Source: Waddliaceae bacterium
GTDB taxonomy: Bacteria > Chlamydiota > Chlamydiia > Chlamydiales > SLFE01
DNA: 64,000 nt
Direction of reading: 5' to 3'
Assembly (NCBI GenBank): GCA_963771045.1
Contig: CAVYRW010000004.1
Coordinates: 768,001 to 832,000, forward strand
Shown here: positions 22,448-24,026 of the stretch, piece by piece
How positions within the stretch are numbered: the stretch's first letter is position 1
How the letters are laid out: each line of letters starts with the position of its first letter
The notes under the pieces: generated by a model
Database searches by the model: none
What the model saw: the letters and a program-made list of their open reading frames with translations, nothing else
Told to the model about the DNA's origin: nothing
Made by a program: the position numbers and the translations under genes

Positions 22448-22523
22448 TGATAACTTCAAAAGGCGTTGTTGCATAAATCACCACTGAGACCACCGAGCTC
22501 ACTGAGAGATTATGAGAGAGGAA

Positions 22524-22931
22524 TTAAATGATTAGACGCCTAATCCCATTTTTTAGAAGTTTTACATTGAAATTGATGAGCAAACCTCTGCCACCACCAT
22601 TATGCTTAAGATAGGATAGAAGTTGGGCCTCATGAACAGGCAAGAAATTGGCCACAGATTTTATCTCCAAAATAACCTTATCTTCCACTATCATATCGAT
22701 CCGGTAGCCTGAGTCTAGCTTTTTATCACGATAAATAATAGGTACTGGTATCTGCCGGTTAACTTTCAAACCCGCAAGGTTCAACTCGTAGCAAAGACAA
22801 GTTTCGTATGTCGATTCAAGCAAGCCTGGACCTAATCTTCGATGAACTTCAATCGCAGCACCTATGATTTCCCCTGTTAAAAGGTCATTTCTTTTTTGGT
22901 TGGCTTCTTCAGTTGTGTGGGTACTAGTCAT
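22524..22931 (-). CDS. GxxExxY protein (PD-(D/E)XK nuclease-like fold)
   Basis: IIGAAIEVHRRLGPGLLESTY, YRIDMIVEDKVILEIKS, AQLLSYLK, GLLINFN. Confidence 0.95.
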   Translation of the reverse strand: MTSTHTTEEANQKRNDLLTGEIIGAAIEVHRRLGPGLLESTYETCLCYELNLAGLKVNRQIPVPIIYRDKKLDSGYRIDMIVEDKVILEIKSVANFLPVHEAQLLSYLKHNGGGRGLLINFNVKLLKNGIRRLII

Positions 22932-23015
22932 CTTTTCTCCAAAAAGGGCGAATGCGAGCTTGCCGACAAATACCTAATACTCTAATTTTTAGTTGCAACA
23001 AATTGGAGGATCAAG

Positions 23016-23960
23016 ATGAAGGCAAAATATCGCATTCGCAACTGGAACGACTATAACAAATCTCTTATTCAAAGGGGAAGCATAACTGTTTGGTTTTCTG
23101 AAGATGCTATCAATAAGTGGATGGCTCCAAAAGAAATAGGAAAAAAGGGGCGTCCAAAACTCTATTCTGATGACGCTATTCTCACCGCGCTCATTATTCG
23201 ATCGGTTTTTCATCTTCCATTGAGAGCACTCGAAGGATTTTTGACATCTCTTGTTATGATTTTATCTGTTGGTTTATCGATTCCTTCTTATACTCAAATT
23301 TGTCGGAGAGCTAAGTTGTTGGGGCAAGAGTTGAAGAAACTTTCGAAAAAAAAAGTCACCAATATTGTAATCGATTCAACCGGTTTGAAAGTGTACGGAG
23401 AGGGTGAATGGAAAGTTAGGCAGCATGGAATCAGTAAAAGGCGAACATGGAGAAAGCTCCATCTGGCAGTCTGCCCTGACTCTCACGAAATTATTTTCGA
23501 AATTCTTACTGAAAATAACGTTGCAGATTGTGAAGTGTATCCAAAACTTCTCGAGGTAATGCCGAAATCAGTTAAGCGCACATATGGAGATGGGGCTTAT
23601 GATACTAAGCGATGCTATGCTGCAAATGTAGTTCACGGCTCAATTCCTATTATTCCACCCAATAGGAATGCTGTTTTTCGAGAAAACATATCTCCTTCTT
23701 GGAAGATGCGGAATATCAGTTTGCTGGAAATTTCAGGTTTAGGAGGTGATGATGATGCAAGAAAATTATGGAAAAAGTTGAAAGGTTATCATCGTCGATC
23801 ACTTGCAGAAACAGCCATGTTTAGATTTAAACGATTCTTTGGAAATGATTTAAGAAGTAGAACTCTGGAAACCCAAAGGGCTGAATCAAGGGCAAAATGT
23901 GAAGCACTAAATATAATGACAAAGCTGGGAATGCCTGAAAGTGAATTAATAGCAGCTTAA
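23016..23960 (+). CDS. IS5-family (IS903 group) DDE transposase
   Basis: NWNDYNKSLIQRGSIT, IDSTGLKVYGEGEW, WRKLHLAV, GDGAYD, YHRRSLAETAMFRFK. Confidence 0.95.
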   Translation: MKAKYRIRNWNDYNKSLIQRGSITVWFSEDAINKWMAPKEIGKKGRPKLYSDDAILTALIIRSVFHLPLRALEGFLTSLVMILSVGLSIPSYTQICRRAKLLGQELKKLSKKKVTNIVIDSTGLKVYGEGEWKVRQHGISKRRTWRKLHLAVCPDSHEIIFEILTENNVADCEVYPKLLEVMPKSVKRTYGDGAYDTKRCYAANVVHGSIPIIPPNRNAVFRENISPSWKMRNISLLEISGLGGDDDARKLWKKLKGYHRRSLAETAMFRFKRFFGNDLRSRTLETQRAESRAKCEALNIMTKLGMPESELIAA

Positions 23961-24026
23961 ATCAAATCTCTCATATTCTCTCTGTGCGCTCTTGTGAGCT
24001 CTGTGGTTAATTACGCAACAAAGCCA

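Follow-up and report, generated by a model that had tools for sequence, protein, structure and literature searches.

An IS903-group element in a Waddliaceae bacterium carries a GxxExxY gene and bears the repeats of that gene family inside both of its tips

The window analysed here, a 64,000-nucleotide stretch of a Waddliaceae bacterium genome (contig CAVYRW010000004.1, positions 768,001 to 832,000), holds a mobile unit of 1,564 bp (22462-24025) in which two intact, divergent reading frames, one for a GxxExxY protein and one for a DDE transposase, lie between two-layered inverted ends (Table 1). Both the boundaries and the two genes given in the first-pass annotation of this DNA were confirmed, the genes by ORF calls and profile matches. 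On one side the unit is flanked by arsR and on the other by a short fragment resembling acr3; a tRNA-Ser gene is close by. This part of the window (21120-26071) is a decayed arsenic island. It begins with arsM-arsR, and past two IS insertions all that is left of an acr3-like gene is its first ~35 codons (E 0.0012); then come an 85-aa ORF, similar by eye to the N-terminus of an integrase and matching no family, and the tRNA-Ser gene. The window also encodes an F-box and leucine-rich-repeat protein (19788-20861), likely a host-directed protein of an environmental chlamydia, and an IS200-like (Y1) transposase (16677-17078).

Table 1. Features of the element and its immediate flanks; positions are those of the window.
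Feature	Position	Strand	Basis or description
Left 9-bp target-site duplication	22453..22461	+	acttcaaaa; sequence read-out
Left IS903-type terminal inverted repeat	22462..22479	+	18 bp; 16/18 identical to IS903B end
Left arm	22480..22520	+	three CACNGAG words, 9-bp period, purine-rich tail
GxxExxY gene	22524..22931	-	135 aa; TIGR04256 and PF13366
Intergenic region between divergent starts	22932..23015	.	84 bp
IS5-family, IS903-group DDE transposase	23016..23960	+	314 aa; NF033579, 289 bits (cut-off 140)
Right arm	23967..24007	-	three CACNGAG words, of which one has an additional A; in inverse orientation to left arm
Right IS903-type terminal inverted repeat	24008..24025	-	14/18 identical to IS903B end
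IS256-family insertion, separate and later	24027..25424	-	transposase 24057-25286; inside right target duplication
Right 9-bp target-site duplication	25432..25440	+	complete but displaced copy

The unit had been described as bounded on both sides by the duplication acttcaaaa. The left copy stands as described, but a right copy directly abutting position 24025 was rejected, because an IS256-family element entered after the first base of that duplication, so that the complete copy is now displaced. The intruder has its own 8-bp duplication, caaagcca (24019-24026 and 25425-25432), and belongs to a family with nine copies in the genome and 8-bp duplications.

Sixteen full copies of the studied element are present in the genome at 99.87-100% identity, all holding both genes; exact, directly flanking 9-bp duplications, each different, were found for 12 of them, while the studied copy has its displaced duplication and three have none. 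With near-identical full copies so often enclosed in this way, the proposal that the GxxExxY and transposase genes inserted together holds, and the further copies with different duplications that the first-pass annotation had suggested looking for are thus found within this genome. The GxxExxY frame is intact in all 16 copies and the transposase frame in 15, and the same two-gene layout recurs in other families. The element is recently multiplied and moves as one piece. All 18 GxxExxY matches in the genome fall inside copies of it, whether full, hybrid or among the few fragments also present. The hybrid, a 17th copy (G000:C4:1701314-1704285), is identical to the main family over its first 349 bp and 78% identical thereafter, has a frameshifted transposase, and has its GxxExxY gene interrupted by another IS256 (G000:C4:1701663-1703056); one 9-bp duplication encloses the whole, and a mosaic within a single duplication is evidence of recombination between two element families. 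Counting the studied and hybrid copies, 14 distinct 9-mer duplications were collected, with 67% A+T. A genome of the same genus (G001) contains more copies with other duplications, plus deletion derivatives.

We found no empty allele of this insertion site in four kin, no arm-to-arm joints in the contigs of four sequencing runs, and no copies with arms but without IS903 tips among the G000 copies and 14 stretches of G001. A single 217-bp contig from an RNA run matches the element at 97% identity, which is too little for showing expression. One query against viral contigs gave no confirmed relative, and the best plasmid matches were plain elements of at most 47% identity. Named records with the element's ends were, among the matches listed, mostly Chlamydiales, Parachlamydiaceae or Waddliaceae; about 30 of the 80 end-pattern loci examined among the listed matches were chance matches in unrelated bacteria.

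The assignment of the transposase to the IS903 group of the IS5 family holds, as both the profile match and the likeness to IS903B, in the transposase (44% identity, 138/312) and in the tips, support it. The catalytic triad D120, D192 and E265 is invariant in 17 transposase relatives. Both ends carry terminal inverted repeats within the 15-27 bp typical of IS903-type elements, and the 9-bp duplications are those of the group; the transposase probably works on the 18-bp tips and generates these duplications. According to PMC3281130, IS903-group elements are 1,050-1,054 bp long and produce 9-bp duplications. With 1,564 bp and two ORFs rather than ~1.05 kb and a transposase only, the unit is therefore a derivative of the group and not a plain member: IS903 and IS903B lack its second, divergent gene and the 41-bp word arm inside each tip. 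Ahead of the transposase gene, TTGCCG-17-TAATTT was seen by eye and was not picked up by a consensus scan; the promoter and terminator scan performed at chance level and gave no terminator-like site at the arms. The genome also holds a second, passenger-free IS903-type family of 44-46% amino-acid identity with ends GGGTGTGTTGCCTAATTC and without words (G000:C4:48248-49138, 400009-400899, 956428-957318 and 2230311-2231192; C1:54924-55532).

Each end of the element is built of two layers, an outer 18-bp tip and an inner arm whose words begin at base 19, directly inside the tip. Both end sequences quoted in the first-pass annotation were correct on re-reading, as was its description of three CACwGAG-like units per end at a period of about 9 bp: CACNGAG words lie at element positions 21, 30 and 39 on the left and 21, 30 and 40 on the right. 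Each arm lies a few bases behind a stop codon, and the two read alike on the coding strand. Inside the tips, the match between the arms scores 22, and none of 5,000 shuffles exceeded 9. The left arm shares its design with the downstream arm of free GxxExxY cassettes (see below), and the right arm sits ~1 kb from the GxxExxY gene. Ends in which an IS903 tip is fused to words occur in 19 of 401 genomes of the class, and a reversed control gave 0 matches. The spacer from tip to word differs among element families, from 0 to more than 10 bp, and words are retained at both ends while spacers and tails vary. In 10 of 12 elements the best three matches of the left end included the element's own right end, which in the studied element came only eighth of 12.

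Four elements of 1.1-1.5 kb (L082, L136, L433 and L439) have fused IS903-plus-word ends with other DNA within, and L082 has an exact 9-bp duplication. An IS110-family element (NF033542) was found at the same point in the IS903-type tip, after GCAAC, in L193 (1713-2901), in L111 and in contigs of two runs, and a similar-looking insertion cuts a gutted copy from G000:C2:86491 onward; this IS110-family element may target the IS903-type inverted repeat.

The GxxExxY protein matches TIGR04256 with 146.9 bits (cut-off 35) and PF13366 with 141.2 bits (cut-off 22). In 59 aligned rows G36, E39, Y42, E89, K91, Q103 and Y107 are invariant and D79 nearly so, and E39, D79, E89, K91, Q103 and Y107 are carried by the predicted PD-(D/E)XK fold. 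The structure model (mean pLDDT 81) has an alpha/beta core and most closely resembles restriction enzymes, Cas4 (SSO0001), Hjc and AddAB, in fold matches of middling strength (Z at most 7.3; Foldseek E no better than 4e-3), among which TnsA ranks 49th (Z 5.1). Model and structure matches agree with the PD-(D/E)XK-like fold named in the first-pass annotation. They show a common fold and no function, and we describe the protein as a predicted PD-(D/E)XK nuclease; in a survey of that superfamily PF13366 is entered as 'Unknown' (PMC3424549). A sequence match to RelE among solved structures (E at least 0.37) was treated as chance, and a protein atlas yielded nothing usable outside PF13366. Complex prediction for the transposase with the GxxExxY protein scored 0.00, which is evidence neither way.

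The passenger looks functional, judging from purifying selection and intact catalytic residues. For six unsaturated pairs of IS-borne GxxExxY genes, which leave out decayed or relic copies and have high dS (0.5-3), dN/dS is 0.03-0.16, the transposase giving 0.06-0.13; the values for decayed or relic copies are 0.18-0.36. Every full-length IS-borne gene checked retains the key residues, except the relic L069. The purifying selection may have taken place while the genes were still in the free pool, prior to exchange. The GxxExxY/PF13366 family is very large (at least 8,000 matches) and is present in 27 of 61 relatives and in 22 of 81 genomes of another phylum. GxxExxY domains within long open frames, of 1,015 aa in L292 (G482:C1), 726 aa in G472:C23 and 295 aa in L280, the last with two such domains, indicate that fused forms exist.

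Elsewhere the gene is found as a free cassette with inverted arms of its own. The first-pass annotation had named, and proposed to look for, CACAGAG-type repeats around stand-alone GxxExxY genes, and the link is borne out: inverted arms scoring at least 30 flank 38 of 62 GxxExxY loci, compared with 12 of 62 in a same-orientation control and 2 of 222 random windows. The loci came from Chlamydiae, a sample of the phylum of an Anaerolineales genome, Bacteroidota and Sphingomonas, with six loci of short flanks left out and with the IS903-tip relics L003 and L069 and the IS-borne L004 and L014 included. Each arm consists of a series of 8-9-bp words, among them CACAGAG, CGCAGAG, CACGAA, CACAGAT and CAGGAT, and word type tracks the protein tree loosely. 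Free cassettes lie between host genes in sense orientation (e.g. fabD-GxxExxY-fabG). In G012 one is found between two convergent genes, has no IS tips, and is absent at the same junction in the congener G146. That genome has one GxxExxY gene and dozens of arm matches elsewhere, of which those fetched were mostly gene-less intergenic palindromes; gene-less palindromes of 130-270 bp with the same tips occur in G012, G492 and G135. Tandem amplifications of whole, half or partial cassettes in L031, L046, L068 and L005, with periods of ~343 and ~543 bp in G016, resemble clustered REPINs.

Of 61 relatives, 27 have a GxxExxY match, and 18 of these contain word doublets, as do 5 of the 34 without; at least 10 doublets are present in 12 of 27 versus 1 of 34, in a sample where kin are not independent and some doublets (G011, G016) are IS-borne. 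The pattern omits CACCGAG and other word types, so that it misses the studied element's own arms, and under it 9 of the 27 genomes with GxxExxY have no doublets. One 92% complete genome (G029) has 21 CACAGAG-type doublets without a GxxExxY match to this query; its words may reflect a lost gene, a missed gene or another partner. In the genome studied here, 0 exact word doublets lie outside IS copies despite 16 intact GxxExxY genes, so there is no visible sign that the IS-borne enzyme seeds palindromes in it. From the co-occurrence of gene and words, GxxExxY proteins likely act on their own words.

The words follow the passenger and not the transposase. We compared 95 related transposase loci, of which 11 carry GxxExxY divergently with the right end visible, 62 have a left tip near the transposase and 22 were uninformative on one side. 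At least two words are present at the transposase-side end, ~1 kb from the passenger, in 10 of the 11 GxxExxY-carrying elements and in none of the 62 plain relatives; the eleventh, L193, also has words and scored 0 since IS110 interrupts its tip. Transposases of the carrying elements range down to 61% identity. A single clade of word-bearing transposases was rejected (p-AU 4e-5), with L205 and L074 falling among plain elements, as was a single clade of IS903-borne GxxExxY genes (p-AU 5e-4), the groups in both tests having been chosen with a first tree at hand. The sister of the studied element's GxxExxY gene group is a free cassette, L057 (81% identical). Gene and transposase synonymous distances disagree between element pairs, L001 and L053 differing by 0.74 in the GxxExxY gene and 0.34 in the transposase. 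L202 is an IS903-group element with GxxExxY in tandem and an internal arm pair, and in G016 an IS5 element of another group (NF033580; ~1.40 kb, 3-bp duplications) has the whole cassette behind its stop codon. Taken together, the sequence comparisons indicate that IS5-family elements captured the cassette more than once and exchanged parts.

Neither the GxxExxY nor the transposase gene is needed in cis. Gutted IS903-type derivatives are common and keep exact 9-bp duplications (L119, 69 bp; L424, 144 bp; L415; L403), and one 249-bp gutted form occupies two different sites with exact 9-bp duplications (L419/L435). In G016 gutted half-gene derivatives number ~42 and full copies ~11 among the matches listed.

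Coupling these observations, we lean towards a reading in which an IS903-group insertion sequence is moved by its DDE transposase and GxxExxY is a captured second selfish element that would recognise CACNGAG words. A free cassette would have landed between the left tip and the transposase promoter, and its arm would then have been copied to the right end, the two ends since tending to evolve together. The arms would be kept since the GxxExxY protein binds the words and nicks or cuts beside them, and in genomes with free cassettes the same activity would copy arm-bounded palindromes. Recombination would exchange the gene between IS-borne and free cassettes, with the IS as a vehicle. A bolder version seems doubtful, if possible: GxxExxY proteins would mobilise a class of bacterial selfish DNA not yet described, a counterpart of RAYT/REPIN in which a PD-(D/E)XK nuclease reads tandem 8-9-bp words. 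The IS would then be a two-enzyme element with nested ends, worked on by transposase and nuclease alike, which would either give it two separate ways to spread or cooperate as a single machine.

The passenger may instead have been co-opted as a transposition accessory which, bound at the words abutting the tips, stimulates, restrains or completes the DDE reaction; Tn7, where TnsA works with TnsB, is an example of a second-strand cutter beside a DDE enzyme. The arms lie directly against both tips, the divergent genes are only 84 bp apart, words persist at the transposase-side end of nearly all carrying elements despite their diverged transposases, IS5-family elements gained the cassette several times, and GxxExxY is under strong purifying selection. 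However, the 62 plain relatives have complete ends with neither gene nor words, plain IS903-type copies with a duplication are present in this same genome, the gutted copies have exact duplications (though their proteins could be supplied in trans), the G016 cassette lies wholly inside its element and away from the left tip, and the tip-to-word spacer is not constant. We therefore consider such a role unlikely. In addition, the first-pass annotation took independent insertion boundaries of the GxxExxY gene to speak against a two-gene system, and this is in part what we see: the gene moves with the transposase here, and free cassettes with the same arms, one with an empty site in G146, have boundaries of their own. 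The passenger is thus more plausibly a captured second element than a partner built for transposition.

We regard three other explanations as less probable again. The arms could work in RNA, pairing in read-through transcripts or shaping 3' ends, such that cassette and IS are tolerated at gene junctions while GxxExxY processes or binds RNA or has an unrelated role. Both arms do stand behind stop codons and read alike on the coding strand, free cassettes are inserted in sense orientation between host genes, and a gene-less copy folds strongly as DNA (z -15.9). Yet single arms of the element fold no better than shuffles (z 0.84 and 0.21), Rfam gave no match, the scan picked up nothing like a terminator at the arms, most of the closest folds are those of DNA nucleases and, because the two genes are divergent, neither mRNA of the studied element holds both arms, which makes this explanation improbable. 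Hardly more can be said for gene and arms as neutral cargo, with ends matched by gene conversion and the gene conserved through repeated replacement from the free pool, and we rate it slightly below the RNA explanation. The mosaic histories (as in L001 and L053), the lack of a single clade of IS-borne genes and the excess of half-gene copies in G016 among the matches listed are as it would predict; the retention of words at both ends amid varying spacers and tails, of key residues in the checked full-length IS-borne genes apart from relic L069, and of an intact GxxExxY gene in every full copy here are not. Least probable of all is the addiction or defence role raised in the first-pass annotation, by which a toxin or anti-phage nuclease would benefit the IS or its host. 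A PD-(D/E)XK fold is common to restriction enzymes and the presence of the family is patchy, but PADLOC returned only weak Cas4/Cas4b matches (E 0.014-0.017), the unit contains no partner gene or methylase, copies with broken genes are common and spread, and the arms and gene-less palindromes would be left unexplained.

Reading the element as an IS with a captured passenger, its structure is that of a transporter IS (tIS), the name given to IS derivatives with passenger genes (PMC9330008): one transposase and one passenger lie between one pair of ends and are multiplied as a unit. What is unusual is that the passenger, a member of a family linked to repeats and not a gene for resistance, regulation or metabolism, brought its own cis repeats, and that these now form the inner layer of both ends. 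The free cassettes resemble REP/REPIN-RAYT systems, described as a gene flanked by inverted repeats, with gene-less doublets and a presence correlated with repeat abundance (PMC2817692, PMC3116915); inverted flanking repeats, many intergenic gene-less inverted doublets, tandem clusters and a gene-repeat correlation are found in both. RAYT, however, is an HUH (Y1) tyrosine transposase, whereas GxxExxY matches PF13366/TIGR04256 only and has a PD-(D/E)XK-type fold, and REP repeats are short self-folding palindromes whereas GxxExxY arms are runs of 8-9-bp words. The studied element differs further in that its arms also enclose a DDE transposase and lie inside IS903 tips, and in that dispersed gene-less doublets are seen in relatives but not in this genome. 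Both folds of a Tn7-like TnsA and TnsB pair are present here, yet plain relatives and gutted copies exist, and Tn7-like systems have AAA+ regulator and target selector genes where this unit has two ORFs only. In Geobacter, paired triple repeats have been interpreted as predicted regulator sites (PMC2700814; PMC2996986), in Geobacter metallireducens as 'class 2 predicted global regulator binding sites' (PMC2700814); they are similar by description, and the accessible part of PMC2700814 reads them as regulator sites and draws no link to GxxExxY or IS903. In the literature within reach, to which subscription papers, bioRxiv supplements and ISfinder did not belong, we found no description of an IS with GxxExxY or GxxExxY-linked repeats.

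In conclusion, the element is probably a fusion of an ordinary insertion sequence and a second selfish element that has been little studied. It is small, intact and recently multiplied, its ends are defined and its transposase is well understood, so a single construct can be used to test whether GxxExxY binds or cuts the words, whether it helps transposition and whether it copies arm-bounded DNA. Positive results would explain widespread intergenic palindromes once read as regulator sites, would add an enzyme that is neither HUH nor DDE to the ways in which bacterial repeats spread, and would show one selfish element built into the ends of another.
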